Source: Escherichia coli
GTDB lineage: Bacteria > Pseudomonadota > Gammaproteobacteria > Enterobacterales > Enterobacteriaceae
DNA: 64,000 nt
Strand: one strand, 5' to 3'
Assembly: GCF_050320075.1 (NCBI RefSeq)
Contig: NZ_CP190018.1
Shown one piece after another: positions 7,501 to 34,420 of this stretch. How positions within the stretch are numbered: position 1 is the first letter of the stretch; each line of letters begins with the position of its first letter. Under the pieces are notes generated by a model. That model searched no databases and had not been told where the DNA came from. It saw only the letters and a list, made by a program, of their open reading frames with translations. The position numbers and the translations under genes are program-made.

Positions 7501-7506
7501 AATAAA

Positions 7507-8330: not shown

Positions 8331-8546
8331 ATGCAAAATCTCATTCTAAAGAATGGTAACGAAGAATTGGTTATCACTGATGAAACATTCAATGCTACGG
8401 CTTATATGCTGGGGATCACTCCCACAGAATTGAAAAAACATTGTGATAAGCTTTTTAAGTCTGCTGATGAACAGAAACCTACTATGCAGGATCTGATTAA
8501 AGCAAAAGCAGAACAAATCAAACAATCCAAAAAAGGAAACTATTAA
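8331..8546 (+). CDS. hypothetical protein (71 aa)
   Basis: ORF track; immediately precedes the capsid-like gene pair. Confidence 0.5.
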   Translation: MQNLILKNGNEELVITDETFNATAYMLGITPTELKKHCDKLFKSADEQKPTMQDLIKAKAEQIKQSKKGNY

Positions 8547-8548
8547 TT

Positions 8549-8920
8549 ATGGCTATTATTAATATGAGCGATCTGTTTCCAGTTCGCAAATCATTTACCG
8601 ATATCGTTTCATATGCAACTGATGAGTTCGGTTGTGTGCAATCTTTTACCGTTGATCTGGCGGTTGATGTTGAATGCGGCGATCTGATTACCAGTGACGG
8701 CGCTGAATATGTAAGCGGCGGCGATGTTCTTGTAGTTGTGTCTGATGCGGTATCCGCTGGCGACGCTAAAACCGTTAACGTGCTGCGTAGCAATGCCGGA
8801 CTGGTTTGCATCAAGTCCGATGCTCTGAATGTTGAAGGCGCTGTGAAAGAAGCTGCTATTGCTGCCCTGGCTGCAAAAGGTTTCCAGATGGCTGGTTTTA
8901 ACACTGTATTCACATCTTAA
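8549..8920 (+). CDS. putative virion structural protein (123 aa), possibly head-decoration-like
   Basis: Small Gly/Ala/Val-rich protein directly upstream of and coupled to the 342 aa gene; codon usage is strongly biased toward highly-expressed E. coli codons. Resemblance to a lambda D-type decoration protein is by size and arrangement only. Confidence 0.4.
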   Translation: MAIINMSDLFPVRKSFTDIVSYATDEFGCVQSFTVDLAVDVECGDLITSDGAEYVSGGDVLVVVSDAVSAGDAKTVNVLRSNAGLVCIKSDALNVEGAVKEAAIAALAAKGFQMAGFNTVFTS

Positions 8921-8938
8921 TATAAAGGAATAAAAATA

Positions 8939-9967
8939 ATGATTATTGGTAATGAATCCGTCGATCTGGCTCCGCTGTTTAGTCTGCACGACTCTCGCAA
9001 CTTCCTGTTAACTTCTCTCGACTTTACTGATCCGGTAGGTGTGAGTTCTCATAAAGTGGCTGTTAGCCAACTGGTGGAAACTAACGAATCTCTGTTCAAC
9101 AAAGAAACCTCTCGTTTCTCTTCTGAACATAACGTGACTAAACGTGAACAGGGTAAAGAATTTTTAGTAGAGATCCCCTACTTCCTGCGTGAAGATATGA
9201 TTAAGCCGCAAGACGTGCAAGGCAAACGTAAACCAGGCGCTACCGTTGAAGAAACTCTGACAGATATCTACGCGGAATATGTTGCTAAGCACCACATTGC
9301 TTTCCAGCGTACTAAAGAAAGCGTGCTGGCTGCTTCCCTGTTCTCTGGTCGCACTTACACCCCTAAAACTGATGATGTGCTGATCCAGTGGGGCGATCTG
9401 TTTAGTGTTGTTCCGATGACTGCAACCATCGACGCATCAAGCACCACGCCTTCTATGGTGTTCCAGCAATTCGATCAGATGCATACAGACGTTATTACTA
9501 AAGCACAAAGCCAGGCGGCTGCTGTAGAACGTATCGTTGTATTCTGTAAACCTGCTGCTTTCAACGCTATCCGTTACAGTGCTGGCATGGTTAACGCGTT
9601 CCAGTATGCAAGCCCTACCGATGACGCAAACATCGTTTATAGCGTGCGCTCCCTGCTGCCAGGTGTGACTACCTTCACTATTCCTGGGACTAACATCGAT
9701 ATCGTTAAAGTTACTGATCCGCTGCTGCTGGCTCATATGACTTCTGATGCGGTTGCTGTTCCGAAGTTCGCTAAAGGCTCTAACGTCTATCAGAACATTT
9801 TCAGCGCTCCTTCTTCAACGTTCGACCTGCTGAATTCTGGCGCGGCTGAATATTACAGCTATGCGTTTAGCCCAGCACGTAACGACGCTGTAAACGTAGT
9901 TACTGAGAATAGCCAGATGGTTGTAAACCACGGCGTAGGCTTCACTGTACAGATCACAGTAGCGTAA
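8939..9967 (+). CDS. putative major capsid-like protein (342 aa)
   Basis: Size and position (after a ~120 aa protein) resemble a lambda D/E-type head gene pair; AAGGAA RBS; codons strongly optimised (CGT, CTG, TCT, AAC, GAA) unlike neighbouring genes. Not confirmed by homology. Confidence 0.45.
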   Translation: MIIGNESVDLAPLFSLHDSRNFLLTSLDFTDPVGVSSHKVAVSQLVETNESLFNKETSRFSSEHNVTKREQGKEFLVEIPYFLREDMIKPQDVQGKRKPGATVEETLTDIYAEYVAKHHIAFQRTKESVLAASLFSGRTYTPKTDDVLIQWGDLFSVVPMTATIDASSTTPSMVFQQFDQMHTDVITKAQSQAAAVERIVVFCKPAAFNAIRYSAGMVNAFQYASPTDDANIVYSVRSLLPGVTTFTIPGTNIDIVKVTDPLLLAHMTSDAVAVPKFAKGSNVYQNIFSAPSSTFDLLNSGAAEYYSYAFSPARNDAVNVVTENSQMVVNHGVGFTVQITVA

Positions 9968-10120
9968 TAAAGCGTTAATAGTCGTTTCCTGTGCGACTGG
10001 AAATAAAACAGGCAATAAGGGCAAAAGGGATTATTAAACCTGTAGCGCAAATACAGTAAACAATCTCTTTTGCCCTTTTTTCGTTTATACCGTCTATTAA
10101 AATATTGTGAGAGAAAAATC

Positions 10121-10312
10121 ATGAGCGAACAAAACAACAATCCAGTTGAGATCCTGAAAGCTGTTTCCACCTTACCGGAAGATATTCTGAATATCTCTCA
10201 AGTGTGTAAGTTTTTAGGGATCTCTAATACTGCTGTACGTCAAAGAATCTTCACTACTGGCTGCTCAGCTATGGAAGCAGTGCAATACTACGTAACAAAA
10301 CAAAACAAATAA
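10121..10312 (+). CDS. hypothetical small protein (63 aa), possible HTH
   Basis: Internal ATG of ORF 10070..10312 (MSEQNNNPVEIL...); segment ISQVCKFLGISNTAVRQRI is helix-turn-helix-like. Confidence 0.35.
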   Translation: MSEQNNNPVEILKAVSTLPEDILNISQVCKFLGISNTAVRQRIFTTGCSAMEAVQYYVTKQNK

Positions 10313-10330
10313 AAGGTAAAGGAAAATATT

Positions 10331-12172
10331 ATGGATTTAAACATCTCAACCTTAACAAACAAGGTTGTATTTAAAGTTGATTTTGCATCATTACAGAAAG
10401 CAAGGGACGCAGGGAAGAAATTTCAGAAAGAAATGGAAAACCTAACCAATCCAACATTGAAAGGGAAGAAGGCTAAACGAGCTATAGACGAGGCTCATGA
10501 TCTGGTAAAGGCTCGTAAAGCTGCACAGGCTAAAACTGATGCCAAAGCGTCAGACAAGCAAGCTCAAACCGATAAGAAGAACGCTGATAAGGTGGCAAAG
10601 GCAGAAGCTAAAGCGAAGGCTAAAGCCGCTATAGCTGCCGATAAACAGATCCGCGCTAAAGCGACAATAGCAGAGAAAGCAGAGATTAAGCGCCAGCAAG
10701 CTTTCAGACAGCTTGAAGGGATTAAGAAAGGGCGTATGGGCGACGGTATGGACTCCGCCCAATACTACAAAACGTTGCAATACATCAAAGCACAAACGGC
10801 AGCGTATGAGAAAGGCGCTATTAGTCAGGCTAAGATGAATCACCTGATCCGTGATCGTATCACGTTAGAACGCCGTGCGGCTGCTGTAAAAGCTCGCCAG
10901 GTGGCGGCTGATGGCGGTAAATATCCACATATGGCTAAACAGCTTAAAGGCGGTCATATAGGCGGTGGTGTAGGTGCAATGGTGGGCGGTGCCGCTCTCA
11001 CTGCTGCCACTCTCGGCGGTGCTGCGATATTCAATACCGTAACCGATCAGGCAAGCAAGATCACAGACACTAACCGCAAGGCAAAGGCTGTCAACGTAAA
11101 CACTAACGCCCTGTTAGCACTTAATCAGTACGGCTTAGAACACGGTGTCGATAGTTCCGTAGACCAACGTCAAGACAACCTTAAAGACGTTCAAGAGCGT
11201 TTAGGTGAATCCGTAGGGAATACCAAATGGGACGCTAAGAAAGGTCGCTGGGCTGGCGGTAATGGTGCCGTCGATAACATCCTTAATAAATATGGTTGGA
11301 GTCCTGAACAGATTAAAGGTTTCCAGACTGATCCATTAGGTTTCCTGGGCGCTGTAGTGAAAGAAGGAGAACGCCGTGGACTCTCTGATCAGGAGCAGGG
11401 TCACATCCTTGAAGACCTTGGAAATGATTTACAATATTTCCGTGGTGCTTTCAGTCGTAACGGTGAAGAGCTAAATAAAACCATCGTTAAGATGCAAAAA
11501 GCCAATGCCACCTATGCGCAAGCGGATCTTGACGCTGCTGAACGTCTGCAAGCTGTACAGGCTAATATGAATATGGCCTGGGAAGGTAGTAAGAAAGCTA
11601 TCATGACGGGATTCGGTGAAGAGTTCGACGCTCAGGCTGGTGAAGAGTGGGCGCAAATGTTGAAAGATCTCAATCCTCTGTTTAAAGAACTTGGAAGCTC
11701 AACGGCTGAAATGATGAGCGCCTTTGCTGGTGCTGTATCGTGGCTTACTGCTGCATACCAGAATATAAATCCAGAGAACAAACATGAAAACCTTGATTCG
11801 TCCGGTATGTATTATAAGGATTCGTTTGTAGGCGGCATGGTTGATTGGGGTCGTAGTGCTTTAGGCTTATCGCCTATCCCTGGCACGGAAGACAAGCCAA
11901 CGACTGGCGGAACTGCAATTCAGAACTATTCAAGCCCGTCCGATAACGTGCAATCCCTGAAAGAGAACGTTAGCCGTGATCTGAACACTACCCCATCTAT
12001 GACGTATGCGCCAAGCATTGTCGTAAACGTGCCAGAAAGTAAGGTTGATGTGAATATCGCTCCTGATGGTAGTCAGCTTGGATCATACCTCGATTACAAA
12101 GTGGGAAGTATCCAACAAGATTTTGAACGTAGTTTCACGTTGGCGGCTCTGTCTGGGCAAGCACCAAGTTAA
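10331..12172 (+). CDS. large coiled-coil / glycine-zipper protein (613 aa); tape-measure-, scaffold- or DNA-pilot-like
   Basis: Lys/Ala-rich coiled-coil stretch (KAKAKAAIAADKQIRAKATIAEKAEIKRQQ), then glycine-zipper hydrophobic segment GGHIGGGVGAMVGGAALTAATLGGAAIF. Function inferred from composition only. Confidence 0.5.
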   Translation: MDLNISTLTNKVVFKVDFASLQKARDAGKKFQKEMENLTNPTLKGKKAKRAIDEAHDLVKARKAAQAKTDAKASDKQAQTDKKNADKVAKAEAKAKAKAAIAADKQIRAKATIAEKAEIKRQQAFRQLEGIKKGRMGDGMDSAQYYKTLQYIKAQTAAYEKGAISQAKMNHLIRDRITLERRAAAVKARQVAADGGKYPHMAKQLKGGHIGGGVGAMVGGAALTAATLGGAAIFNTVTDQASKITDTNRKAKAVNVNTNALLALNQYGLEHGVDSSVDQRQDNLKDVQERLGESVGNTKWDAKKGRWAGGNGAVDNILNKYGWSPEQIKGFQTDPLGFLGAVVKEGERRGLSDQEQGHILEDLGNDLQYFRGAFSRNGEELNKTIVKMQKANATYAQADLDAAERLQAVQANMNMAWEGSKKAIMTGFGEEFDAQAGEEWAQMLKDLNPLFKELGSSTAEMMSAFAGAVSWLTAAYQNINPENKHENLDSSGMYYKDSFVGGMVDWGRSALGLSPIPGTEDKPTTGGTAIQNYSSPSDNVQSLKENVSRDLNTTPSMTYAPSIVVNVPESKVDVNIAPDGSQLGSYLDYKVGSIQQDFERSFTLAALSGQAPS

Positions 12173-12228
12173 TGATAAAGAGAATGTTTAATCACCATTT
12201 AAAACACTCTTATAAGGAATTAAGCATA

Positions 12229-12259
12229 TAAGAGGCTCCCATTACAAGGAAGCCTCTTT
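12229..12259. terminator. bidirectional terminator-like hairpin between convergent 613 aa gene and integrase
   Basis: Inverted repeat AGAGGCT(CC) ... (GGA)AGCCTCT flanked by A/T-rich runs. Confidence 0.4.
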
Positions 12260-12279
12260 ATTGCGCCTATGGCGTTGTT

Positions 12280-13441
12280 TTAAGCCTTAAAATCAATATT
12301 TAATTCATATCTTACTAATTCTACATATTCAGCTAATTCTGGAATGCTTGCCCCTTGTGAGTAGGTGCGAAAGGCTTCTGTTTTAGCTCTCTGCTCTGTA
12401 TGTCCGGTAATGGCACCGATCCGCTGTTCAGGCACTCCGGCACGATCAAGACAAGTGATAAACATCCCGCGCAAGCTGTGAAAGCATTGTCTATTTGTAG
12501 CGATTGGCAAGACGCTACGACGTAAACGTGAGAACGCTTGAGAATAGAACGGGCCTTTCTTACCGTCGATTCTTTTTACTTTGTTCGAGTGAGGGAACAA
12601 ATATTCACCATAATTATGATTTAAATATTCATCGACAATAATCGATAGTCTCGAATGTATCGGAACGTGCCTGATCCCTGCTTTAGTCTTACTTTTGCTG
12701 ATATAAAAACAGCGTATTCCTTCCACAGTTACAACCTCTGACTTTTTCAGACTTGCCAGTTCGTCTAATCTGCATCCTGAAAACAAGCCCATTAAAATAA
12801 TATTTCTGATCTCCGGCTCCGCTGCATCAAGTAGCTTTTGCATTTGTTCAGGTGTAAACGGTTGATAACTCTCGATTGTGCGACGTGCTTCGAGATTATG
12901 ACCGTGAAAAGGGTTACTGTCTGGTATTCCGTCATAACGGCGTTTAGCAAATTCATAGAGCGATCCTAAGCATGTAAGCCAGTTTTGACGAGATTGATCG
13001 GCTGCTCCTCGTTGCTTCTGGTCATCTAAGAATACTGTTACAAGCCGTCTGCCTATTTTCTCAATATGAATATCATCTTTCTGAATGCTTTGTAAAAATA
13101 GCTCAACGGCCCTTGCTGATTTCTGTAGTGTTGAGTATGAACGACGCTCTCTGTAGCATTCGGCGTATTCGTCACGTATTAAGCATAGGGAAGGCGATGC
13201 ATAACCGCGTTTTACGGCTCTTTGCGTGTTTTTATTGGCCCTTGCCTCTGAATGTAAGGATTCAATAGCTTGTTGTAACCTCCTTTCGGGGTTATCAGGA
13301 TTATGTTTCCGCTTTAGTTCCTCCCATTCTAATAATAGATGGTTTCTGAATCTTCTCGCCTCATTCAGATCTCGTGTAGATGTGCTTTTTCTCCACAACT
13401 TGTAAGGGTAAAGATGACGTAAGTATTTAGGAACAAAAATC
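12280..13441 (-). pseudogene. tyrosine recombinase / integrase with 5-prime end disrupted by IS1
   Basis: C-terminal catalytic motifs of tyrosine recombinases (R in GCRLDEL, HSLRGMF, GHTEQ...FRTYSQG). The ORF's first 5 codons (to 13455) lie inside the IS1 inverted repeat, so the native start and promoter are missing. Confidence 0.8.
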
Positions 13442-13496
13442 GGTGATGCTGCCAACTTACTGATTTAGTGTATGATGGTGTTTTTGAGGTGCTCCA

Positions 13497-13772
13497 GTGG
13501 CTTCTGTTTCTATCAGCTGTCCCTCCTGTTCAGCTACTGACGGGGTGGTGCGTAACGGCAAAAGCACCGCCGGACATCAGCGCTATCTCTGCTCTCACTG
13601 CCGTAAAACATGGCAACTGCAGTTCACTTACACCGCTTCTCAACCCGGTACGCACCAGAAAATCATTGATATGGCCATGAATGGCGTTGGATGCCGGGCA
13701 ACCGCCCGCATTATGGGCGTTGGCCTCAACACGATTTTCCGCCATTTAAAAAACTCAGGCCGCAGTCGGTAA
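13497..13772 (+). CDS. insA: IS1 InsA
   Basis: 91 aa product matches remembered IS1 InsA ([32 protein letters not shown]...). Confidence 0.95.
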
Positions 13773-14194
13773 CCTCGCGCATACAGCCGGGCAGTGACGT
13801 CATCGTCTGCGCGGAAATGGACGAACAGTGGGGATACGTCGGGGCTAAATCGCGCCAGCGCTGGCTGTTTTACGCGTATGACAGGCTCCGGAAGACGGTT
13901 GTTGCGCACGTATTCGGTGAACGCACTATGGCGACGCTGGGGCGTCTTATGAGCCTGCTGTCACCCTTTGACGTGGTGATATGGATGACGGATGGCTGGC
14001 CGCTGTATGAATCCCGCCTGAAGGGAAAGCTGCACGTAATCAGCAAGCGATATACGCAGCGAATTGAGCGGCATAACCTGAATCTGAGGCAGCACCTGGC
14101 ACGGCTGGGACGGAAGTCGCTGTCGTTCTCAAAATCGGTGGAGCTGCATGACAAAGTCATCGGGCATTATCTGAACATAAAACACTATCAATAA
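13691..14194 (+). CDS. insB: IS1 InsB reading frame (expressed as InsAB by frameshift)
   Basis: 167 aa ORF overlapping insA in the -1 frame, typical IS1 organisation. Confidence 0.9.
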
Positions 14195-14478
14195 GTTGGA
14201 GTCATTACCCTTTGGCTATGAATAATTCTGATTTGACGAATCCAGAGGACTTATAGATCACTGTCTCCGGTTTAATAACTTGAATATAATCTAATTCTAA
14301 TATTTTAAACGCCTAATGATTTTTCAACACGGGTGTTATTCTGCTTACGCAAAAATTTTATTTTTAATTATATTTCATTATTATTTCATCAATGTATTCT
14401 TTGGATTTTGCTTATAATAATAATGGAAGGGATGATTATAAATGAATGCGTTATTGCATTTACACTCAGGATGAATAT

Positions 14479-15111
14479 ATGGGAAAGATTAAAATTGTAG
14501 TTTCAGATCAGCAGCCGTTTATGATTGATGGGATAATTGGATTTCTCGGACATTATCCCGATTTATATGAGGTTGTTGGGGGCTATAAAGATCTGAAGAA
14601 AGCTATCGCGGAGTGTAACAAATCTGCAGCCCAAATATTTATTTTAGGAGAATTTGCAGGTGGAATGATGGGGTCCGAACTCATAAAATGGGTTAAATCG
14701 CATAAAATAGATGCTCATATTATTACATTTGTAGCAAAAATGCCGTATATTGATTCAATAAAATTGCTTGAAGCCGGTGCGAAAGGATGCGTATGGAAAA
14801 CCAGTCATCCGGCGAAACTAAATCGCGCTATTGATTCGATTAGTAATGGTTACACTTATTTTGATAGTGTACATATGGATTGTGAAAAAATATCTTCAAG
14901 ATATTCCTCTGATAATCAACTTACAAATCGTGAGTCTGAAATACTACAACTCATAGCTGATGGGAAAACAAACAAAGAAATCGCTAATTTCTTGCAGTTA
15001 AGCAGGAAAACAGTCGAAACTCATAGACTCAATATCATGAAGAAATTAGATGTTCACAGTGGTATCGAGTTGATCAAAACAGCTTTACGTATGGGTGTTT
15101 GCACTATATAA
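14479..15111 (+). CDS. ygeK: LuxR-family response regulator (ETT2 remnant)
   Basis: 210 aa from [12 protein letters not shown]; C-terminal LuxR-type HTH ([39 protein letters not shown]). Confidence 0.8.
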
Positions 15112-15129
15112 AAAAAAGAGGCTTTAGGT

Positions 15130-15633
15130 TTATTTTGCTAAAGCCTTACGCTTGTCTATTTCATTAAGTCTGGTATATACAACATATATTTTTTTTGCAT
15201 ATTGCAGCCTCTTTTTTTTGTTTTCCATTGCAAAACCCGCGTTATATGTCCCCAGACATTGCCACGTTACCCCACAACGTGAAAAATGATTATATAAAAT
15301 CTCGGTCCCTATTTTAATGTTCAGACAGGGGTTATCTAACAAATCTCGTCCATCTTTTATTATTCCACGTTTTTTTAACATGGGAATGTGCATCTGGTTT
15401 ATCTGCATTAAACCATAATCAACACTCTTTATATTGTTTTTCTTATCCCTGTTTTTGCCGATGCTATCATTTTTTAAATTACTTTCAACAAGAGCGATAG
15501 CTTTGATCAAATTTGGTTCGATTCTGAAAATTGATCCTGCTTCATTAAAGCAAGCGCTACTGGCGAAAGACATTTTTGTAATTAATATAGAAAACATGAA
15601 GATGGATAAGATTTTAACTTTGGGTAAGCGCAT
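15130..15633 (-). CDS. pbl: IagB-like lytic transglycosylase (T3SS-associated)
   Basis: Signal peptide plus soluble lytic transglycosylase motifs (ALVESN..., GLMQIN, TYNAG). Confidence 0.8.
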   Translation of the reverse strand: MRLPKVKILSIFMFSILITKMSFASSACFNEAGSIFRIEPNLIKAIALVESNLKNDSIGKNRDKKNNIKSVDYGLMQINQMHIPMLKKRGIIKDGRDLLDNPCLNIKIGTEILYNHFSRCGVTWQCLGTYNAGFAMENKKKRLQYAKKIYVVYTRLNEIDKRKALAK

Positions 15634-15716
15634 ATATTTTTATGTGTAGGATTGAAGGAAAGGAACGAGATACTAATATATTCAGTATCTCGTTAATCAT
15701 TTAAGTGGTCAATTAT

Positions 15717-15935
15717 CTACCATTCCAGTTCATAGTAAGGAGAGATAGGATTATCTTTCGAATACATATCATTTTGAAAAGATGCCATCCATGTTGAAAC
15801 TATAAATGCTTGTATTTGATCTGTATCAGTAGTACTGGTGGTGATGTGTTTATCTAATGAAACGACTTCATCACCCGTTGCGGTTGCTATATTTAAACTT
15901 TGAGAAAAATTATTCATATTGATTGGATTAGTCAT
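15717..15935 (-). CDS. ygeI: hypothetical ETT2 protein (72 aa)
   Basis: Size and position match remembered ygeI between pbl and ygeH. Confidence 0.55.
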   Translation of the reverse strand: MTNPINMNNFSQSLNIATATGDEVVSLDKHITTSTTDTDQIQAFIVSTWMASFQNDMYSKDNPISPYYELEW

Positions 15936-16102
15936 AAAATTCCCTTTTTTATTTGTCCAGGCCAATAGCCTATACACAATACTTTTTAATCTAGAGTATT
16001 TGATATATATTGCAATAAGGTAATTATCTTAGATGTTTTCATCTCTGTTGTTGACATAACCAGTTGCATACATCTAAACAATAAAATTGCGACAATAAAG
16101 AT

Positions 16103-17479
16103 TTATCGCATACAAATTCTCGTCAGTTGCTTTAGTTTCAAAATGTTGTCAATTATAACTCGATGGCTTTCACTCGAAGTTTCTTTATAGTAGAGTTTCA
16201 TGTTGCTTTTGAGCGGGTTAGGCACATACATATCTACACACTCTTTTATCACAACTGCTTTTCGTCTTCTGGGTTCGAGTTGTAGTGATTTGTCTATACA
16301 AATCCTTGCCTCTTCAATTCTTTCATTATGAAAATTGACAAGTGCTCTATAGTAGTAGAGAGAGGCTATATCAGTTGTGTGTATCTTAGCCTGTTCAAAT
16401 AAGATATGAGATACTTTTGCTTGTCCAGACAGACCAGTTATCAGTCCCATAATAGCTAAAATTTTTCCATCGACATTGGTTATGTCTGATACATAATGTA
16501 AAAGCTCTAATGCTTTTTGAGCAGCAAGTTCAAGTTCATACTTTCCATGAAGTGCCAAAGACATATGGCATTCCGCTAGCAGACAATAACATTCTATTTT
16601 TAGCGTCTGTATATCACTTTTATTTTGTAATCCATCAAATATAGCCATAGCCCTGTAAATGCTTTCAGGAGTAAACTCGTAAAGTTCTTTCTTACCAGCC
16701 AACAGTTCATCTGATAAATAATGATTCTTATAACCTTGGTCCGGTTTAGCTAATCTTACAGAACGCTCTGGATTATGTACCGTTTGAAGGATATTATCTA
16801 TAATAAATTGTGATGTGTTATGTAGTTCATCAACAGGAAGATGATTACTGGCGATGAGGAAAAGATTTTTAGCGTCGATCAGTTCAATGTATAAAGTTTT
16901 CACCGCGTTATTCTGGTTTATTCTTCCTGTAACGAAATAATCTGGCTTGAATCTTCTCAAAAATGAATTTTGCGATATGTGATCATTACAAAAATTTGTC
17001 GCAGCCATCGGATAGGTATAAAGGCCATCGATTTTTTTATTCGAAATGTTTTGCACTAATTCCTGATTAAGTATTAATGGATCCAGAGTATTCAATGAAG
17101 TGGTGAAAGGAAATATAGCTATGGAATAGTCTGAAGTGTTATCTTCATTTATTTTAGTTTTGAAAACCTGTCCACTGAAACGATAACCTTTCCGGTAGAT
17201 TGTTTCTATGCAACGATCATAGCCAATTTTTTCAAAAATGCAGCGCAAAGAATAGATACATCTTGTCAGGGACTCGTCACTTACAATAATATTTTTCCAT
17301 ACTGATTCGATGATCATATCTTTCAGGACAACATGACCAGCGGATTCAAGTAATACGATCAATACTCCTAACTCTTTCGGTGGAATATAAATCTGCTCAT
17401 TTCCTTGAGTAAGAATTCCATCTTCCGTGAGCGTTAATCCCTCGAGAAAATGATATGAGAATTTATTTTCTAAGTCCAT
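16103..17479 (-). CDS. ygeH: HilA-like transcriptional regulator (OmpR/ToxR-type winged helix plus TPR region)
   Basis: 458 aa; N-terminal winged-helix DNA-binding domain, large C-terminal helical region. Confidence 0.85.
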
Positions 17480-17813
17480 TAGTTATCCTCTATGAAAAAA
17501 TTGGTTTCTTGCATCCTGCATAAGCAATAGAAATTGTGGCTATTCATATTTATGTGTCATTAATGCTACAGGAGTTTACATTCGACATATCTATGATTGT
17601 GTTCACTAATTTATCTTAGGAATTCAGTGATGTAATCTGAAATAGCCTTATTCAATTTTGATAAAATAGATTGTTCTCTAACGCGTTGAAAAATAGTAAT
17701 TTATAGTGTGTTCTTAACTGTTTTAAGATGTTGATTTAAGAAAACATAAGAGAAGCTGGTCATAGTGGTTAACTGCACTATAACCAGCAATTTTTACCAA
17801 ATGCTTGTAATGC

Positions 17814-18305
17814 TTAGCCATTATCTTCTGAATTATCGGTTAAGAGTTCAATATATGCCTGCGCTTTGCTCTTAACACTTTCATCCTCACAATTGTTAAT
17901 AATATGATAGAAACATTGCATTGCGTTATCGATATTTTTAGCCCCAATTTGACATTGACCCATACGATAAATAACTGAATAGTCATCATACGGGGAGTAA
18001 TTGTAACTTAGTTTGTAAAGGTCATATGCTTGTTGATATTTCTTTTTTGACTGGCATACTGATGCAAAACCTTTTAGATATTCATGATTTTCGAACGCAT
18101 AAATGCACAGAAATTTATAATAAATTTCTGCGTCCGTTATATTACCTTTTTCATGGTAGTCGAATGCATATGCATATATTCTATCAAGGATATCAGGAGT
18201 CAATCCATGTAGTAATGCCAGATTTTCTCCTTGTGATAATGCGTGTTTTAGTTGACTTGCCCATTCATCACTGTTATTGAATATTTCAAGTGTATCTGTG
18301 CTCAT
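17814..18305 (-). CDS. ygeG: SycD/LcrH-like tetratricopeptide T3SS chaperone
   Basis: 163 aa from MSTDTLEIF; TPR-like repeats; the ORF track's longer form has an N-terminal extension. Confidence 0.8.
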   Translation of the reverse strand: MSTDTLEIFNNSDEWASQLKHALSQGENLALLHGLTPDILDRIYAYAFDYHEKGNITDAEIYYKFLCIYAFENHEYLKGFASVCQSKKKYQQAYDLYKLSYNYSPYDDYSVIYRMGQCQIGAKNIDNAMQCFYHIINNCEDESVKSKAQAYIELLTDNSEDNG

Positions 18306-18528
18306 AATATTCCTCTGTGATGTGTTTCGTGATGCTAAATTATTATTAATTGACTCATTATTTTTTGCATTTATCTTTTTTGAATTATGAGTTTTAAGCT
18401 TGCATTGCTTAAGGGTATATTGGTTCATTATTAGTAAAAATACTGACCACTATAAACCAATAATGTCATTAGTTTTTTTCTAATATTCACCTTATTAGTT
18501 ATCTTATTTACGACATTTCATAAATGCC

Positions 18529-19020
18529 TTAATATGCATGACCTTGATTCATATTATCAATTTCCCTTTTTTCGATGAAAATTAAAAAGGGGATTTTTGC
18601 GAAGGGTAGTAAGTCGTCTAGTTTTTTTTCTTTATTATGTCTGGTGACGAGGGGGGATAGAACGTCGGTGCATATAGTAGAGAATTTATTCAGGTCTAAA
18701 TTATTCTCTATTTTGGCCAGTTTTATGAGTTCATTTGTAGCCATACTCATTAAATCATCTGTTATCGGAAATTTATATATGCTCATAGCCGATAATATTG
18801 CTTGCTGAATTATTTCTTCAGAAATATCCGCTATCTTTATTGACAAATCATGTGTTAGATATTTTCCTCCAAGAGATTCTTGTTCAATATAATTTAAACC
18901 AGACCTCATCGTAATTTTAACTGGATTCACGTATTTCTCTTCATTTTTCTTATTTTTGTTCTCCTGATCAGGAACTAATGGTTGCAGTGGTAGGCTATTA
19001 TTAATATTTCGTGGCTTCAT
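18529..19020 (-). CDS. ygeF: hypothetical ETT2 protein (163 aa)
   Basis: ORF track; position upstream of ygeG. Confidence 0.55.
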   Translation of the reverse strand: MKPRNINNSLPLQPLVPDQENKNKKNEEKYVNPVKITMRSGLNYIEQESLGGKYLTHDLSIKIADISEEIIQQAILSAMSIYKFPITDDLMSMATNELIKLAKIENNLDLNKFSTICTDVLSPLVTRHNKEKKLDDLLPFAKIPFLIFIEKREIDNMNQGHAY

Positions 19021-19449
19021 TTTACATTTCTCTCATTTGATTAGAGCAAAATCCGAATTCGCAGCTTCTGATAATGTCAAATATCACCTTTTCTCATGCT
19101 TTATTCTATCAAAAATCGCTCATTTTTACTTTTTTTACCATAATGTTACTTAGTGGCATCGGCAATTTACATAACTTACATGTTGTTTTTTATATCCTGA
19201 AAAAACAGATAGATAGTGTGCACACTCGAAATGATATTGGTAACATAAATAGCTTTATTCGTGACAAACATCTCAAAAGATTTCCTTTATTATTTTCGAA
19301 ATTCATTTGATCAAGGTTATCACCTTATGGAGACGTTACGTAGAATGACTATATTTGTTATCGGCACATTAGGGGTATTAAATTTAGTATTGATGGAAGG
19401 TGATTATTGAACAGTAACATCGAGTCACGGTCAAAATGTGAGGTATATA

Positions 19450-19875
19450 ATGGACATTGAGTTTTCGCAGATTCATGAAATGGTCTATATGCATGATATT
19501 GTAAATTCGGACTCGAAAAAGAAACCAAGGATTCCGTTAAAAAAATTCCTTAATGCTGAGAAAGTTCTCACGCAAACAACATCATGGGTACTAAATTCAA
19601 GATATGTGAATGTTAATTCTGTCAGTAAAGTCAACGTAAAGAGTAAAGTTAAAAACAGTTATATCTCACGATCTGTCAATGATGAGTTTAGTTTAACAGA
19701 TGATGAAATCAATTCTTTTAAAGAAACGTTAGTCCTTTCCTCTATTGATTCTCTAAGTAAACTGGTTCTTAATAATCCTCTTTCTGTATTGTTTACATCG
19801 ACTGTACGAAGGAATAATAATAGAGCTAAGATGAATGTTGAGTTCGACTCATGGATTTGCACCAGATGTTGTTGA
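19450..19875 (+). CDS. yqeK: hypothetical protein (141 aa)
   Basis: Start at MDIEFSQ; size matches remembered yqeK. Confidence 0.55.
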
Positions 19876-20023
19876 TACATGATATTTTGCATTGCAAGGT
19901 GATATCTAAAATGAAAGATGTTGATCAAAACTTTGATGCTTTATACTGGCATATACTACAAGCATATTTAATTTTATTGTTTTATGATTAACGAGGTTCC
20001 ATCTTTTTATTATCTATTTAAGT

Positions 20024-20518
20024 TTACCTTGCACAATGCATTATTGCTCTGTTACCAATACTCAAAATAAAAGCATGCTTACCTTGCTTTAGTATATTAT
20101 AGCTTACACTTTTTTCTGGAAAGACATAAAAATCAGGAATAAGTTCTGCAAGTCTATCATCATCGACTTGATCCATGATCTCAAATTTATTAACTTTCTT
20201 TGATGTTAAATGGGCTGTGTCATAGTTTTCAATCCATGTGTATTCAATATTTCGCCGTATTGACTTACTTTCTCTGTTACCTTGTTGCCAGGTTCCGCTC
20301 AACGCAACAGTTCCTGTTTTATTTTTTTGGTTATACATAAAGTCGATGGTAAGATTTGCTCGCCCCTTGTCATTAAAAATTACCCAATTTGCAGTGCATG
20401 TTTCATTATATATCATTTTTTCTGCAGTATAAGAGTAAACAATGAAGAGAATAAACCCACTGATAAAAACTAAAATAAATAATAAGTTTTTTTTATAATC
20501 AATCACGATTAACCTCAC
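20024..20518 (-). CDS. yqeJ: hypothetical membrane-anchored protein
   Basis: N-terminal transmembrane helix (LLFILVFISGFILFIVYSY); position matches. Confidence 0.6.
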   Translation of the reverse strand: MRLIVIDYKKNLLFILVFISGFILFIVYSYTAEKMIYNETCTANWVIFNDKGRANLTIDFMYNQKNKTGTVALSGTWQQGNRESKSIRRNIEYTWIENYDTAHLTSKKVNKFEIMDQVDDDRLAELIPDFYVFPEKSVSYNILKQGKHAFILSIGNRAIMHCAR

Positions 20519-21308
20519 GGTAAGACAGGGTTAAACAGCCTGCCACTTCATGTTGGTTATAGTTTTTATTGCATGCCATAACAATCATCCCTGGTGAGGA
20601 TTTTGCAAGAGGGAAGTATAACCACGGATATTTTTTACAGTTAATCCCCGAATCCAGTATCCGTGTCTTATATTTATCGAACTCTTTCAACCCATCAATT
20701 GTATCTTCTGTCACATTAAAATGGCAGCCATTAATTTCCGCAACAGTCTTGTAATCCTTGAAGAATGGCTTCGGTTGATTATTATTCCATAGCCAATGTG
20801 CAGAATATACGCCTATAGCAAATATGCTCAACATAATTAGATAACTTTTTATATGTTTGAGGATTTTGTTATTGAAATTGTTTGCGCCACCAATGCTCTC
20901 TTTGTACCCCGCATTACCTTTTATGGCAGGTGGGGCATTGTGTGTATGTGCGTCTGTTGAAGAGTTTATTACATGATTTTGTATGTTAATGTCATTATGA
21001 ATCTTGAATCCTCTTCTCGGCACGGTTGCAATAAGCGAGTGGGTGGTATCACCAACAGCGCGAAATCCGCGTCTGATAATGGATATGTTCTGATATAACG
21101 TGTTAGTTGGCACACGCATACCTTCTTCTTCCCAGACTCTGGTGAAAAAATCTTGTTGTGCAACCACATCAGGAAAAGCTTCAAGTAGAAGTGATAAACA
21201 ACGACTGGCTGGCGTTGTCAGAACGACGTTAAGATCGGCGTTATGTACCGATATTAATTTTCGGTGCTCAGGCCAGAACTCGATATTATCGTTAATAATC
21301 CAGTACAT
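20499..21308 (-). CDS. yqeI: ToxR/CadC-like membrane transcriptional regulator (269 aa)
   Basis: N-terminal OmpR-type winged helix followed by a transmembrane segment (IMLSIFAIGVYSAHWLW). Confidence 0.8.
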   Translation of the reverse strand: MYWIINDNIEFWPEHRKLISVHNADLNVVLTTPASRCLSLLLEAFPDVVAQQDFFTRVWEEEGMRVPTNTLYQNISIIRRGFRAVGDTTHSLIATVPRRGFKIHNDINIQNHVINSSTDAHTHNAPPAIKGNAGYKESIGGANNFNNKILKHIKSYLIMLSIFAIGVYSAHWLWNNNQPKPFFKDYKTVAEINGCHFNVTEDTIDGLKEFDKYKTRILDSGINCKKYPWLYFPLAKSSPGMIVMACNKNYNQHEVAGCLTLSYREVNRD

Positions 21309-21641
21309 ACGTCAATAGACACTAAATCAATCAAAATGGAAATCACATAGTTTGCTAAGTATATTGGTATTTACGGCATAAATATATATTAATTTTATAT
21401 TTATCATAATGATTGAAATGAGGCTTTAATGTCGCAACGTAAAACTTTACGTAAATTAACATGATTAACATTTATGCCACTATTGTTTGTAAATTCATAT
21501 TTCGTAATGCTTCTGAATTTTTCGTGTGATGGTTTTAAATACCATGTTGTTTACTCTTGGGGTTACTGCTTATTTGTAAAATACGGGCATTTCAATAGAT
21601 GCCCGTATAAGCAGAGTATGATTCTGGCAGATTATTTAGTA

Positions 21642-22274
21642 TCAATGTTGGACCGAATGTGAACGAATAAATAACTCGTTTATTTTACCACCCATTCTCT
21701 TTTCGATTCGTTGCTTGTACGCGTAGATGCTACGGATATCCATATCCAGAACTTCAGCAATCTGATATGGATTATAACCAGAAACCATATATCCCATTAT
21801 GGTGAATTCCATCTGAGTTAATGTATTCCCTCTGGTAAATGATAAATAACGACCAATAAATAGTTGTCTGATCTTTTCATTGGCAACATCAAGACCATCA
21901 TCATTATATATGACAGCAGATATTGCAGAGTTGTGTTTTCGCCAGTAGTTAGCTAACGATTGCATATTGCGGTCGCTGACTAAAACAATCCCCATGTCAG
22001 TACTTGCAAGATAGTCAATCCAGTCTTTTTCAAGGAATAGACGTAAAAAACTTACTGAAAAATCGACAAAAATATATCCGCTTAATCTCGCATTGTGGTT
22101 TTTTGTTAAAATACCTTCCACCACACCACGATTAAAATATGAACTTTCTTCGGGCCACATACAAAAACACGAGTTTGCGCAATACTGCAAACGCGGTGAC
22201 TCTTCTGGCATTATTTGGCAATGCATTGAGCAACTATTGCATGTAAGACTTTTATAACGACTACAAAGCCCCAT
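21642..22274 (-). CDS. yqeH: LuxR-type transcriptional regulator (210 aa)
   Basis: C-terminal LuxR HTH (GYNPYQIAEVLDMDIRSIYAYKQRIEKRMG); start taken at MGLCSRYK. Confidence 0.75.
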   Translation of the reverse strand: MGLCSRYKSLTCNSCSMHCQIMPEESPRLQYCANSCFCMWPEESSYFNRGVVEGILTKNHNARLSGYIFVDFSVSFLRLFLEKDWIDYLASTDMGIVLVSDRNMQSLANYWRKHNSAISAVIYNDDGLDVANEKIRQLFIGRYLSFTRGNTLTQMEFTIMGYMVSGYNPYQIAEVLDMDIRSIYAYKQRIEKRMGGKINELFIRSHSVQH

Positions 22275-22733
22275 GTTAAGAACCTCCCTATCCGTATATA
22301 ATTGCATAATTTCATTGGTTATTGATGATGTCAATACACCATGATTTTGTAAATTTGCTGGGAAAAATTGCGATTAATCTGAATTTGCTATAATTCTGAG
22401 TAAAGCATTTAAAAATGCATTTCTCGTTATTAAATATGATTATGTTTCACTGATTTAATCTTACCTGGTTGATGGTGGTTCAGATAACTATCTCATGGTA
22501 TGAGAATATCTATATCGCAAATTGTTTTTGAATGACCAGAAGATATCTTGCGAATCTAAGTTATGCATCTTAAATAGTCTTATTTAAGATGTTCAGATCT
22601 CTTTGTGTGTTTAACTAACTGATAATACTAGGATATGACGAGAGAAGTGATAGAGCGGAGTTATAACAAATGAACATTATGAAAACTGGAATGGTTCAAA
22701 ATTGTAGCAATTTTGAACCATTCACAATGGATA

Positions 22734-23963
22734 TTAGCTAAAGAACATTACCGATACGCACAGGATACCCACGATCAGCGTAATCAGATTTCCGATGGAA
22801 CGCCAGGGTTTAAGCGCCGGGATGAGATACGTTGACAGCGTAGGCATGATGAAAAGTATCATGGCAATGAGCGGGCCGCTGATCGCGTAAATCATCGAAA
22901 TCGCGTTCGGGTTAATGCAACAAACAATGAAGGTAATCAGCGATACCAACATAATTGATAGTGCGCGGTTAAATGCACGACTTTTCTTTACACCAACCTG
23001 CTGTAGTGTTGTTTTGACGACCTCTGTGGCACCTTCAATAACGCCAAAGTACGTACCCAGGAATGATTTCGACATCGCAACTACTGCGACAATAATCCCG
23101 GAAATTGACAACCATGCTGGGGCGTTCGGCAGCATAGAAAGCGCCGATAAAATGGTAACCCCTTCTTCTTTAGCCGCTTCAATATACGAAGGTGGAATAG
23201 AAAGCAGGCAGCTAAAGACAAAGAACAGTACACTTATGCAGATGATGAGATAAGCGACTTTCATAATTTTTTTGCATTTATCCATAGCATGTTCGCCATA
23301 TTTTTCACGTCTGTCTATGGCAAACGTAGAAATAATGGGCGTATGGCTAAAGGCGAAAACCATCACGGGAATCGATATCCATATCTGGTGAAGGGTATTC
23401 TGATTGAACTCTACCTGGGTAGTTAATAGATCAGGTTGCCAACTACCGACCAGGTAAATAGAAAGAAATAAGAAATAGGCAATCAATGGGAATACCAAAA
23501 ATCCCATTACCCGAATAGTGGCATGGCGTCCCATCAGAAAAATGAGATTCAGGATTAATACAACACCCAGACTCACCAACATACGGATGCGAAGATCAAT
23601 AACCATATGCTTTGCCAGCTGTTCCGTAAGTGAGTTGGTAATTGCCACGGCATATATCAACACGACGACAAAAAAGGCGATGAAGTACAGCGTGGTAATC
23701 AGATTACCAATCTTCTTGCCATAGTAGTGTGTTACCGCGCCCGTTATCCCTTCACCTGCTGATGTTTTTGATGAGAGGATGAACTGGCATAAGGCTTTAT
23801 GTGGCCAATATGTTAAAGGCCAGGCGACCAGAGCAGTAATAAACAGGACCACAGCCCCTGCCGAACCTAACTGAATAGGAAGGAAGAGCGTGCCTGCACC
23901 AACGGCTGTGCCGTAGAGCGCGAAACTCCACAGAGTTTCTTCTTTTGACCAAATATTAGACAT
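22734..23963 (-). CDS. yqeG: HAAAP-family serine/amino-acid transporter-like inner membrane protein
   Basis: 409 aa polytopic membrane protein; conserved neighbour of yqeF. Confidence 0.9.
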   Translation of the reverse strand: MSNIWSKEETLWSFALYGTAVGAGTLFLPIQLGSAGAVVLFITALVAWPLTYWPHKALCQFILSSKTSAGEGITGAVTHYYGKKIGNLITTLYFIAFFVVVLIYAVAITNSLTEQLAKHMVIDLRIRMLVSLGVVLILNLIFLMGRHATIRVMGFLVFPLIAYFLFLSIYLVGSWQPDLLTTQVEFNQNTLHQIWISIPVMVFAFSHTPIISTFAIDRREKYGEHAMDKCKKIMKVAYLIICISVLFFVFSCLLSIPPSYIEAAKEEGVTILSALSMLPNAPAWLSISGIIVAVVAMSKSFLGTYFGVIEGATEVVKTTLQQVGVKKSRAFNRALSIMLVSLITFIVCCINPNAISMIYAISGPLIAMILFIMPTLSTYLIPALKPWRSIGNLITLIVGILCVSVMFFS

Positions 23964-24217
23964 TATCTGAACGTATCATCTACAAATTAAACAAAATGGA
24001 GGGCAATTTACCATAAACCAGGTTAAGTATGGGAGATTAACGCCCTTTCTACCTCTCTATTGGTGGGTTAGTGGTTGCAAACCTTACGTGCCAGTTATGT
24101 CTCTGACTGCTGGTCAGGCGTATTTCCTTTGTGATAAAAATCACTTTTTTTAAACAATTAAGATAACTGTAATTAACAATCATTTACTATTGCACTGTTA
24201 ATTGGTGCGAGGTTGTG

Positions 24218-27627: not shown

Positions 27628-29046
27628 ATGGTTACTATCAATACGGAATCTGCTTTAACGCCACGTCCTCTGCGGGATACGCGGCGTATGAATATGTTTG
27701 TTTCGGTAGCTGCTGCGGTCGCAGGATTGTTATTTGGTCTTGATATCGGCGTAATCGCCGGAGCGTTGCCGTTCATTACCGATCACTTTGTGCTGACCAG
27801 CCGTTTGCAGGAATGGGTGGTCAGTAGCATGATGCTCGGCGCGGCAATTGGTGCGCTGTTTAATGGTTGGCTGTCGTTCCGCCTGGGGCGTAAATACAGC
27901 CTGATGGCGGGGGCCATCCTGTTTGTGCTCGGCTCGATAGGGTCCGCTTTTGCGACCAGCGTAGAGATGTTAATCGCCGCTCGTGTGGTGCTGGGCATTG
28001 CTGTCGGGATCGCGTCTTACACCGCTCCTCTGTATCTTTCTGAAATGGCCAGTGAAAACGTTCGCGGTAAGATGATCAGTATGTACCAGTTGATGGTCAC
28101 ACTCGGCATCGTGCTGGCGTTTTTATCCGATACAGCGTTCAGTTATAGCGGTAACTGGCGCGCAATGTTGGGGGTTCTTGCTTTACCAGCAGTCCTGCTG
28201 ATTATTCTGGTTGTCTTCCTGCCAAATAGCCCGCGCTGGCTGGCGGAAAAAGGGCGTCATATTGAGGCGGAAGAAGTATTGCGTATGCTGCGCGATACGT
28301 CGGAAAAAGCGCGAGAAGAACTCAACGAAATTCGTGAAAGCCTGAAGTTAAAACAGGGCGGTTGGGCACTGTTTAAGATCAACCGTAACGTCCGTCGTGC
28401 TGTATTTCTCGGTATGTTGTTGCAGGCGATGCAGCAGTTTACCGGTATGAACATCATCATGTACTACGCGCCGCGTATCTTCAAAATGGCGGGCTTTACG
28501 ACCACAGAACAACAGATGATTGCGACTCTGGTCGTGGGGCTGACCTTTATGTTCGCCACCTTCATTGCGGTCTTTACGGTAGATAAAGCAGGGCGTAAGC
28601 CGGCTCTGAAAATTGGTTTCAGCGTGATGGCGTTAGGCACTCTGGTGCTGGGTTACTGCCTGATGCAGTTTGATAACGGTACGGCTTCCAGTGGCTTGTC
28701 CTGGCTCTCTGTTGGCATGACGATGATGTGTATTGCCGGTTATGCGATGAGCGCCGCGCCAGTGGTGTGGATCTTGTGCTCTGAAATTCAGCCGCTGAAA
28801 TGCCGCGATTTTGGCATCACCTGCTCAACGACGACAAACTGGGTGTCGAATATGATTATCGGCGCGACCTTCCTGACACTGCTTGATAGCATTGGCGCTG
28901 CCGGTACATTCTGGCTCTACACTGCGCTGAACATTGCGTTTGTGGGCATCACTTTCTGGCTCATTCCGGAAACCAAAAATGTCACCCTGGAACATATCGA
29001 ACGCAAACTGATGGCAGGCGAGAAGTTGAGAAATATCGGCGTCTGA
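27628..29046 (+). CDS. araE: arabinose:proton symporter (MFS)
   Basis: 472 aa from [13 protein letters not shown]; the ORF track's longer form has an 18-codon upstream extension. Confidence 0.95.
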
Positions 29047-29052: not shown

Positions 29053-29086
29053 GGGCCGGATGTGCTGTACATCCGGCCCTTTTTTG
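29053..29086 (+). terminator. rho-independent terminator after araE
   Basis: GGGCCGGATG...CATCCGGCCC hairpin followed by TTTTTTG. Confidence 0.65.
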
Positions 29087-29087
29087 T

Positions 29088-29798
29088 GCACAGAAAACCC
29101 CCAGCTAGGCTGGGGGTTCCGGAAAGCTTTCAGCTTTGAGCCAGTTATTCAAACCCCTTTTGATTTGTTAAAACACCTTGCGGTCTGGCAACTGCAAGTG
29201 TCAAACAAGAAATCAAAAGGGGGTCCCAATGGGGGACGAAAAGAGCTTAGCGCACACCCGCTGGAACTGTAAATATCACATAGTTTTTGCGCCGAAATAC
29301 CGAAGACTGGCGTTTTACGGAGAGAAGCGTAGGGCGATAGGCAGTATTTTGAGAAAGCTGTGTGAGTGGAAAAGCGTACGGATTCTGGAAGCAGAGTGCC
29401 GCGCAGATCATATCCATATGCTTGTGGAAATCCCACCCAAAATGAGCGTATCCGGCTTTATGGGATATCTGAAAGGGAAAAGCAGTCTGATGCTTTACGA
29501 GCAGTTTGGGGATTTGAAATTCAAATACAGAAACAGGGAGTTCTGGTGCCGAGGGTACTATGTCGATACGGTGGGTAAGAACACGGCGAAGATACAGGAC
29601 TACATAAAGCACCAGCTTGAAGAGGATAAAATGGGGGAGCAGTTATCGATTCCATATCCGGGCAGCCCGTTTACGGGCCGTAAGTAACGAAGTTGAATGC
29701 AAATGTCAGATCGTATGCGCCTGTTAGGGCGCGGCTGGTAACAGAGCCTTACAGGCGCATTTGAAAAACCTCCGGCTATGCCGGAGGATATTTATTCG
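29088..29798 (+). mobile_element. IS200-like insertion element (IS200/IS605 family), boundaries approximate
   Basis: Subterminal hairpins at both ends (AAAACCCCCAGCTAGGCTGGGGG at 29098..29116; AAAACCTCCGGCTATGCCGGAGG at 29769..29787) flank a Y1 transposase gene; ~710 bp. Confidence 0.7.
29229..29687 (+). CDS. tnpA: IS200 transposase TnpA (HuH/Y1 family)
   Basis: 152 aa from MGDEKSLAHTRWNCKYHIVFAPKYRR; HIHMLVEIPPK HuH motif. Confidence 0.9.
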   Translation: MGDEKSLAHTRWNCKYHIVFAPKYRRLAFYGEKRRAIGSILRKLCEWKSVRILEAECRADHIHMLVEIPPKMSVSGFMGYLKGKSSLMLYEQFGDLKFKYRNREFWCRGYYVDTVGKNTAKIQDYIKHQLEEDKMGEQLSIPYPGSPFTGRK

Positions 29799-29885
29799 TT
29801 AATAGAGATTGGGCACCTGGCCGTTGAGGCGTTTGTCTCGTTCCTTATTCAGCCTTGTTGCGGTAACACACATCAGGAGAGAGGA

Positions 29886-30578
29886 ATGAAAACAATTGGT
29901 TTGCTGGGAGGAATGAGTTGGGAATCCACTATTCCTTATTATCGTCTGATTAATGAAGGTATTAAACAGCGGCTTGGTGGGCTTCACTCTGCGCAAGTGC
30001 TGCTACATAGCGTCGATTTTCATGAAATAGAAGAGTGCCAGCGTCGCGGCGAGTGGGACAAAACCGGGGACATTTTGGCTGAGGCGGCGCTTGGCTTACA
30101 GCGGGCGGGCGCAGAAGGCATTGTGTTATGTACCAATACGATGCACAAAGTGGCGGATGCCATTGAGTCTCGTTGCTCTCTGCCTTTCTTACACATTGCG
30201 GATGCCACCGGACGTGCAATTACCGGGGCCGGGATGACTCGTGTGGCGCTGCTGGGTACGCGTTACACCATGGAACAGGATTTTTATCGCGGGCGGCTGA
30301 CGGAACAATTTTCCATCAACTGTCTCATTCCTGAAGCGGATGAACGGGCGAAAATTAATCAGATTATTTTTGAAGAACTGTGTCTGGGGCAATTTACCGA
30401 AGCGTCACGCACTTATTATGCGCAAGTGATTGCTCGCCTTGCAGAACAGGGCGCACAGGGCGTCATTTTTGGCTGTACGGAAATTGGTTTACTGGTGCCA
30501 GAAGAGCGCAGTGTTCTGCCTGTGTTTGATACCGCGGCGATCCATGCCGAGGATGCTGTCGCTTTTATGCTGTCGTAG
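29886..30578 (+). CDS. ygeA: Asp/Glu racemase-family amino-acid racemase
   Basis: 230 aa from [15 protein letters not shown]; the longer ORF-track form starts upstream without support. Confidence 0.9.
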
Positions 30579-34135: not shown

Positions 34136-34217
34136 CCCAGAGGTATTGATAGGTGAAGTCAACTTCGGGTTGAGCACATGAATTACACCAGCCTGCGCAG
34201 ATGCGCAGGTTTTTTTT
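34136..34217 (+). ncRNA. omrB: OmrB small regulatory RNA
   Basis: CCCAGAGGTATTGATAGGTGAAGTCAACTTCGGGTTGAGCAC... ending in GCGCAGATGCGCAGG hairpin plus T-run. Confidence 0.9.
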
Positions 34218-34332: not shown

Positions 34333-34420
34333 CCCAGAGGTATTGATTGGTGAGATTATTCGGTACGCTCTTCGTACCCTGTCTCTTGCACCAACCTGCG
34401 CGGATGCGCAGGTTTTTTTT
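34333..34420 (+). ncRNA. omrA: OmrA small regulatory RNA
   Basis: CCCAGAGGTATTGATTGGTGAGATTATTCGGTACGCTCTTCGTACC... ending in GCGCGGATGCGCAGG hairpin plus T-run; paralogue of OmrB. Confidence 0.9.

Follow-up and report, generated by a model that had tools for sequence, protein, structure and literature searches.

An IS200C-like insertion sequence at the 3′ edge of the araE terminator in Escherichia coli

The block between araE and ygeA

In E. coli K-12 the genes araE and ygeA are adjacent, separated by 128 bp, as a preliminary description of the DNA studied here had stated. In the window, by which we mean the whole stretch of 64,000 nucleotides from an E. coli genome (contig NZ_CP190018.1), an additional block of DNA lies between the two genes. 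The preliminary description took this block for an IS200-like element inserted just after the araE terminator, and left it undecided whether the hairpin next to araE was the native terminator or belonged to the insertion. The questions raised by this locus are what the inserted DNA is, where exactly it begins and ends, and why it lies directly behind a terminator.

The upstream neighbour, araE, encodes an arabinose:H+ symporter (27628-29046, + strand; RefSeq annotation of an identical locus, Pfam Sugar_tr, 1.4e-136), and the downstream neighbour, ygeA, an amino-acid racemase (29886-30578, + strand). Between the araE stop (29046) and the ygeA start (29886) we delimited a 711-bp block on the + strand, at 29086-29796, which is absent from K-12 MG1655. 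The uninterrupted K-12 site reads …CCGGCCCTTTTTT|CGTTAATAG…, or at greater length ...GGGCCGGATGTGCTGTACATCCGGCCCTTTTTT|CGTTAATAGAGATTGGGCAC..., and both flanks are exactly kept in the window on either side of the block. No bases were lost at the insertion site, the flanks rejoining exactly in K-12, and there is no target duplication, since the K-12 sequence ...CCCTTTTTT|CGTTAATAG... consists of the same flanks as those on either side of the 711 bp. The junction was placed by eye; a MAFFT alignment of the window and K-12 had put the short K-12 flank wrongly inside the element. Owing to a TT before the block and a TT at its end, the left boundary may shift by one or two bases to the left, never to the right. 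The K-12 alignment, which the preliminary description had suggested as a check, upholds its unit of ~710 bp and corrects its limits (29088-29798) by two bases.

The DNA immediately before the block forms an intrinsic terminator (29053-29085, + strand), which comprises a stem-loop at 29053-29079 and a T-run at 29080-29085. Its RNA fold has an energy of -23.3 kcal/mol (z -6.3), and it scores as terminator-like in the terminator scan. Since the hairpin and T-run are found base for base in the K-12 empty site, they are araE's own terminator and not part of the insertion, which settles the point that had been left undecided. The 89-bp region upstream of ygeA (29797-29885) is also the same as in K-12. 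As araE, its terminator and these 89 bp are intact, the insertion is probably near-neutral for both araE and ygeA. Judging by homology (PMC5435999) and by the terminator scan, the left and right hairpins of the element would add transcription stops between the two genes.

The state of the site was determined in a sample of 5,426 complete E. coli genomes. The left junction was observed to be occupied in 136 of them (140-bp probe, full coverage), the right-junction probe was fully covered in an equal number (136/5,426), and the probe for the K-12 empty site was covered in 5,282. The proposed insertion between araE and ygeA is thus borne out, both by the empty site of K-12 and by these counts; presence of the sequence here in all E. 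coli, which according to the preliminary description would make it ancestral, was not what we observed. The junction shared by the 136 genomes is a lineage marker and could serve typing. At least one full-length copy of the element is present somewhere on the chromosomes and plasmids of 2,041 of the 5,426 genomes. Matching places reach a maximum of 36 per genome and number 8-17 in those genomes listed whose sequence here equals that of the window. Within the window itself, a search revealed no second copy.

These data allow two other readings of the block to be weighed. If the araE-proximal hairpin (29053-29086) were part of the mobile element, the latter would be longer and would possess three hairpins. 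This hairpin does adjoin the element and, with its T-rich tail, looks like the element's right end; its presence base for base at the K-12 empty site refutes the reading, to which we attach practically no probability, and at every other insertion site the hairpin before the element is a different one. The stem-loop at 29053-29079 was accordingly ruled out as a part of the element. It could also be argued that the 711-bp block is ancestral at the araE site and was removed from most E. coli by precise excision or deletion, given that excision in the IS200/IS605 family is precise and an empty site alone is indistinguishable from one that was never occupied (PMC3201880). The proportion of occupied to empty genomes (136/5,426 against 5,282, with K-12 among the empty ones) and the finding of the same element at many further loci and on plasmids make this highly improbable. 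We therefore hold with high confidence that 29086-29796 is an intact IS200-group copy of the IS200/IS605 family, nearest to E. coli IS200C, and that an E. coli sub-lineage gained it at the 3′ edge of the araE terminator. Neither the element nor the event nor the site preference is new, and the finding is a correct and ordinary one.

The likeness to IS200C was judged by comparison with two other E. coli copies. Both are 711 bp long, have equal ends, and show 95.8-95.9% nucleotide identity to the window element; RefSeq labels their transposases IS200C, and the identity given is that to these two copies. By the isoform rule of ISfinder, a DNA identity of roughly 95% or more to a named element is required. 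Each of the two copies stands directly after a hairpin and T-run, one beside ompN and the other after gndA. A frameshifted tnpA was found in a further IS200 copy, from E. coli 08A21CPO005 (locus 1050-1509), which adjoins the IS3-family element ISSen4 and shares 94.9% identity with the window element, indicating that some E. coli copies are decaying.

Elsewhere in the window, the first 13.4 kb constitute a phage-like island, with a yecR-like lipoprotein gene (816-1136), a recombinase (1789-2340), a major capsid protein (8939-9967) and an integrase (12280-13455). It is followed by a 768-bp IS1B, at about 13442-14209. Since matches of the island to other genomes stop at 13441, and those of strain 144 to the window begin at 14210, the IS1 lies precisely on a rearrangement joint. 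The whole stretch 1-14209 is matched at 100% by one complete genome only, that of strain YZLc1-3 (NZ_CP123240.1). The region 14210-24000 has a low GC content (31-40%) and corresponds to the distal portion of the ETT2 type III secretion island, with a LuxR-type regulator, ygeH, ygeG and yqeK-yqeH; in strain 144 it is preceded by a full secretion-apparatus gene set, the place of which is taken in the window by the IS1 and the phage-like island. Beyond the araE locus, the small RNA genes OmrB (34136-34217, + strand) and OmrA (34333-34420, + strand) are in positions that follow the K-12 gene order, and three equally scoring tandem tRNA genes lie at 62844-63136 on the - strand.

Ends, transposase and putative regulatory structures of the element

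The element encodes an intact transposase of 152 aa (tnpA, 29229-29687, + strand), and its identification in the preliminary description as a Y1 transposase was confirmed by Pfam (PF01797, Y1_Tnp, 7.9e-37; 126.5 bits, with a cut-off of 23, covering positions 2-121 of the 121 in the profile). Among proteins of known structure in the PDB, it matches the IS608, ISDra2 and Sulfolobus homologues at 1e-13 to 3e-23. The motif H61-I-H63 and the tyrosine Y125 of this Y1/HUH enzyme are present, and the tyrosine aligns with that of PDB 2EC2. The RefSeq product is WP_001550737.1, to which only a generic family name is given. There is no tnpB in the 711 bp; tnpA is the single gene, and the other open reading frames are overlapping, mechanical ones. 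A Y1 HUH tnpA standing alone, subterminal hairpins, the lack of a target duplication, oriented insertion and variable presence among genomes together identify the IS200 group.

No terminal inverted repeats were found, the ends being GTGCACAG... and ...ATTTATT. At the left end, a subterminal hairpin (AACCCCCAGC/GCTGGGGGTT, 29096-29118, + strand) with a perfect 10-bp stem is preceded by GAAAA, whose A-run spans 29092-29095. The 23-mer hairpin is unexpected in shuffled sequence, and by analogy with studied relatives it is presumed to be the TnpA binding site. At the right end (29764-29796, + strand) an A-run at 29764-29768 is followed by a hairpin at 29769-29787 (CCTCCGGC/GCCGGAGG), which the scan scores as terminator-like on both strands, and by the terminal ...ATATTTATT, with TTATT as the last five bases. 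The right stem carries a compensatory change, U-A to A-U, in the Vibrio and Clostridia copies. The hairpins at the two ends are indeed similar, as had been noticed beforehand: their 19-mers differ at five positions and are equal at the other 14, two compensating pairs account for four of the differences, and a GAAAA run stands 5′ of both. The folds of the element hairpins and the terminator region have z-scores of -2.6 to -6.3, by which a chance pattern is excluded.

Between tnpA and the right end, a 14-bp inverted repeat (29715-29760, + strand) has arms at 29715-29728 and 29747-29760 with one mismatch (93% complementary). Its perfect 10-bp core, at 29715-29724 and 29751-29760, is the repeat that the preliminary description had correctly recognised and had placed slightly differently, at 29714..29758. 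The repeat belongs to a fold of -44.7 kcal/mol (z -4.7), and copies from E. coli, Yersinia, Vibrio and Edwardsiella retain it. Among these copies, three changes alter one side only and preserve the pair, and no double compensatory change was found. The structure thus appears to be conserved, with covariation that falls short of proof. An S. Typhi cDNA, StyR-24, has been recorded from the region just after tnpA (PMC2943607), in which the repeat lies.

Upstream of tnpA, a 5′UTR stem-loop (29154-29222, + strand; 16-nt arms, 94% complementary) sequesters the Shine-Dalgarno G-run at 29219-29223, which stands five bases ahead of the tnpA ATG. The region 29125-29240 folds at -43.8 kcal/mol (z -4.8). 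Rfam model RF01405 (STnc490) matches at 29096-29219 with 143.9 bits against a cut-off of 56, over model positions 1-124 of 124; its first helix is the left hairpin and its second the 5′UTR stem-loop, both of which are present. The strand of this match is the sense strand of tnpA. As the RNA described in the literature as art200/STnc490 is antisense to the tnpA 5′UTR (PMC4513863), model and RNA seem to represent opposite strands, and the match marks the locus and not the strand of the RNA. An art200-type antisense RNA would, by homology, be located at approximately 29148-29237 on the - strand, and the minus strand at this position folds at -38.1 kcal/mol (z -5.1). A consensus scan found no sigma-70-like promoter for tnpA or for the antisense RNA, a result which is uninformative either way and agrees with the published description of the IS200 promoter as an 'intrinsically weak, undefined promoter'.

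The regulation of IS200 is well described (PMC4513863, PMC5435999), and the left hairpin of the Salmonella element is a bidirectional terminator (PMC4513863, PMC5435999). By analogy, the transposase of the present element would be kept at a very low level in three ways, namely by the left hairpin acting as a terminator, by the stem-loop hiding the ribosome-binding site, and by the art200 antisense RNA. The family moves on the lagging strand with a known bias (PMC5027513). Over the window, the GC skew of the + strand is +0.045 overall and rises throughout; its K-12 counterpart is the minus strand of the left replichore, at 2.98 Mb. The positive skew and the K-12 minus-strand position place the top strand of the element on the lagging-strand template, as the family rule predicts. 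This orientation agrees with transposition via a single-stranded circle catalysed by TnpA. IS200 is famously almost immobile, and the present copy may never have moved since its insertion.

Position behind terminators in related elements

In order to compare insertion sites among relatives, the exact left-end 19-mer CCCCCAGCTAGGCTGGGGG was used as a query, with one genome taken per species. It was found exactly in at least 120 loci from several phyla. Among the matches listed, the hosts are Yersinia pestis (IS1541), Vibrio, Brenneria, Dickeya, Edwardsiella, Pluralibacter, Budvicia and Oxalobacter, as well as Bacillota and Peptococcaceae bins, Mailhella/Desulfovibrio, and Elusimicrobia and Saccharibacteria bins. 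From the matches listed we drew 99 distinct sites, which represent 11 named genera and unclassified metagenome bins. A position was called terminator-like if it was preceded by a stem of at least 5 bp with a loop of 3-9 and by at least 4 T in the last 7 bases.

On reading the flanks, we saw a GC-rich hairpin and T-run at the left end of almost every copy. By the rule just given, the left end stands directly after a hairpin and T-run in 89 of the 99 distinct sites among the matches listed. Random positions in the same loci are terminator-like in 72 of 4,360 cases (1.7%). A hairpin precedes 90% of the observed sites, but only 72 of 465 random T-rich positions (15%). For the 45-base stretch ahead of the element the median folding energy is -19.0 kcal/mol; the corresponding figures are -7.5 for 45-mers taken at random and -5.3 where these end in a T tail. 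RNAfold was also used to measure the spacing between stem foot and insertion point, but pairing between the A-run and T-run blurs this measure, and no inference was drawn from it. Over 101 distinct left flanks the consensus is TTnTT, with 100 of them having T at -2, 88 at -4 and 97 at -5; a T at -1 in the flank logo is a consequence of the boundary definition. Across the sites read, orientation is constant, the left end lying beside the T-run on the same strand.

Some of the Y. pestis copies stand directly behind the right end of another copy, an end that likewise has the form of a hairpin and T-rich tail. The shared terminus of all Yersinia copies is ...GGATATTTATT, and the head-to-tail IS1541 pairs of Y. 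pestis are joined as ...GGATATTTATT|GTGCCCAGAAAA (loci L097 at 348, L098 at 2405 and 3115, and L100 at 1332 and 2042); the tandem copies of Yersinia likewise join ...ATTTATT|GTGCCCAG.

Several further observations were made on the 19-nt hairpin CCCCCAGCTAGGCTGGGGG. It is exact even though the rest of the element has diverged, with 84% identity in Vibrio and far less in Clostridia, and many of its matches are at contig ends, as expected for a repeat that breaks assemblies. In Dickeya undicola (L074, about 2120-2175, minus strand) a lone left hairpin, in a perfect extended palindrome GTCTATAGAAAA-hairpin-TTTTCTATAGAC, stands behind a terminator with no transposase gene following it, and may be a relic or a miniature derivative. 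In a Ruminococcus metagenome bin (L085-L095) the 19-mer hairpin is part of another kind of repeated element; ATGCTTATT and, beyond it, unique DNA follow the hairpin, which thus appears to serve there as the right-end hairpin of that other element.

The position behind terminators was known earlier, from IS1541 and from a 2025 survey. Odaert et al. (J Bacteriol, 1998) reportedly noted terminator-like stem-loops at IS1541 sites. The interval between pheL and pheA is presumably the position of the pheA attenuator in E. coli, and a copy located in it would fit the same rule. An IS1541 of Yersinia is located between pheL and pheA (PMC3082878), and terminator-like sequences have been reported to be most over-represented immediately upstream of IS200/IS605 elements (bioRxiv 10.1101/2025.07.22.666184).

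An enrichment of this kind could reflect survival and not choice, if insertion were wide and only harmless copies persisted. Intergenic sites behind terminators are plausibly neutral, both neighbouring genes are left intact at the present locus, and a preprint (10.1101/2025.07.22.666184) treats terminator context as a persistence trait. Selection alone would, however, permit both orientations and variable distances, whereas the junction is base-precise, with the left end abutting the T-run in 89/99 sites among the matches listed, and a single orientation is kept, left end beside T-run. The hairpins are also in excess over what a T tail alone would bring (90% against the 15% of random T-tailed positions), and elements insert behind the terminator-like right end of another copy as well. 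We therefore think it rather unlikely that survival accounts for the position, and allow that survival bias could add to the terminator enrichment. Targeting of the terminator is the reading we prefer, and the araE terminator is very likely the reason why the element landed where it did.

As to how a terminator might be chosen, IS608 offers a model. Its TnpA binds the hairpins in single-stranded DNA, and four bases 5′ of each hairpin foot pair with the cleavage site (PMC3201880); the lagging-strand template then receives the excised circle, 3′ of the target (PMC3201880, PMC5027513). By homology with IS608, TnpA of the present element would bind both subterminal hairpins on the top strand as single-stranded DNA, cleave the left boundary just behind the flanking T-run and the right one just behind TTATT, and free a single-stranded circle, which would then be pasted 3′ of a T-rich target on the lagging-strand template without target duplication. 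For a gene transcribed with replication, the terminator hairpin and T-run would be displayed on that same lagging-strand template, where the hairpin and TTnTT would mimic the element's own right end. The A-runs before both hairpins are candidate guides, with the flank TTnTT and the terminal TTATT as their matching cut sites, and the flank TTnTT may pair with the GAAAA guide 5′ of the left hairpin. The presence of GAAAA before both hairpins and the likeness of TTnTT to TTATT are what would be expected if target choice follows the guide-pairing model of IS608. We infer, from the sequences compared, that guide pairing and right-end mimicry may take part in target choice; we know of no demonstration of the terminator-mimicry mechanism.

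Stated in general form, the proposal is that IS200-group transposases use intrinsic terminators as a structure-specific landing pad across Enterobacterales, Vibrio, Oxalobacter, Bacillota, Desulfovibrionaceae, Elusimicrobia and Saccharibacteria, owing to right-end mimicry and GAAAA pairing, with the exact 19-nt left hairpin as the recognition module. To this proposal as a whole we assign an even chance. The wider pattern, for its part, yields a clean and testable landing rule for IS200-type elements, which are expected immediately behind a terminator hairpin with its T-run and always in the same orientation. This rule would explain why such elements rarely do harm and why they persist despite almost no movement. 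It also carries a warning for annotation, in that terminators beside IS200 ends are those of the host gene and not of the element.

Comparison with known systems

The element closely resembles IS200 of Salmonella enterica, which has a published length of 707 bp as against 711 bp here and also possesses a single tnpA. The left hairpin is published at nt 12-34 and lies here at nt 11-33, and the 5′UTR stem-loop is published at nt 69-138 and lies here at nt 69-137 (PMC4513863). Common to both are the Rfam STnc490 match, the lack of inverted repeats and the lack of a target duplication. From the E. coli copies labelled IS200C, the window element differs by a divergence of ~4%.

IS1541 of Yersinia pestis shows 87% nucleotide identity to the window element over the full length. 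Its left-end 19-mer, right hairpin and end are all identical to those of the window element, and it too sits behind terminator-like hairpins. It differs in abundance and arrangement: a genome holds dozens of copies, and in Y. pestis some form tandem pairs, whereas the listed E. coli genomes have ~8-17 matching places.

IS608 of Helicobacter pylori, the mechanistic model of the IS200/IS605 family, has a homologous Y1/HUH TnpA (2.6e-19 to PDB 2A6M). It shares the subterminal hairpins, the strand-specific ends, the absence of a target duplication and a short, conserved left-flank target which resembles the right terminal bases. Unlike the window element, which is without tnpB and has TTnTT as its target, IS608 carries tnpB and uses TTAC. 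Its cut sites are 19 nt and 10 nt from the hairpin feet (PMC3201880); here the left and right distances are 10 nt and 9 nt.

A similar choice of site is known from group IIC introns, which insert just after the stem-loop of intrinsic terminators (PMC7923331). These are unrelated to IS200, consisting of a ribozyme and a reverse transcriptase that move by retrohoming, and the likeness is one of target choice only.
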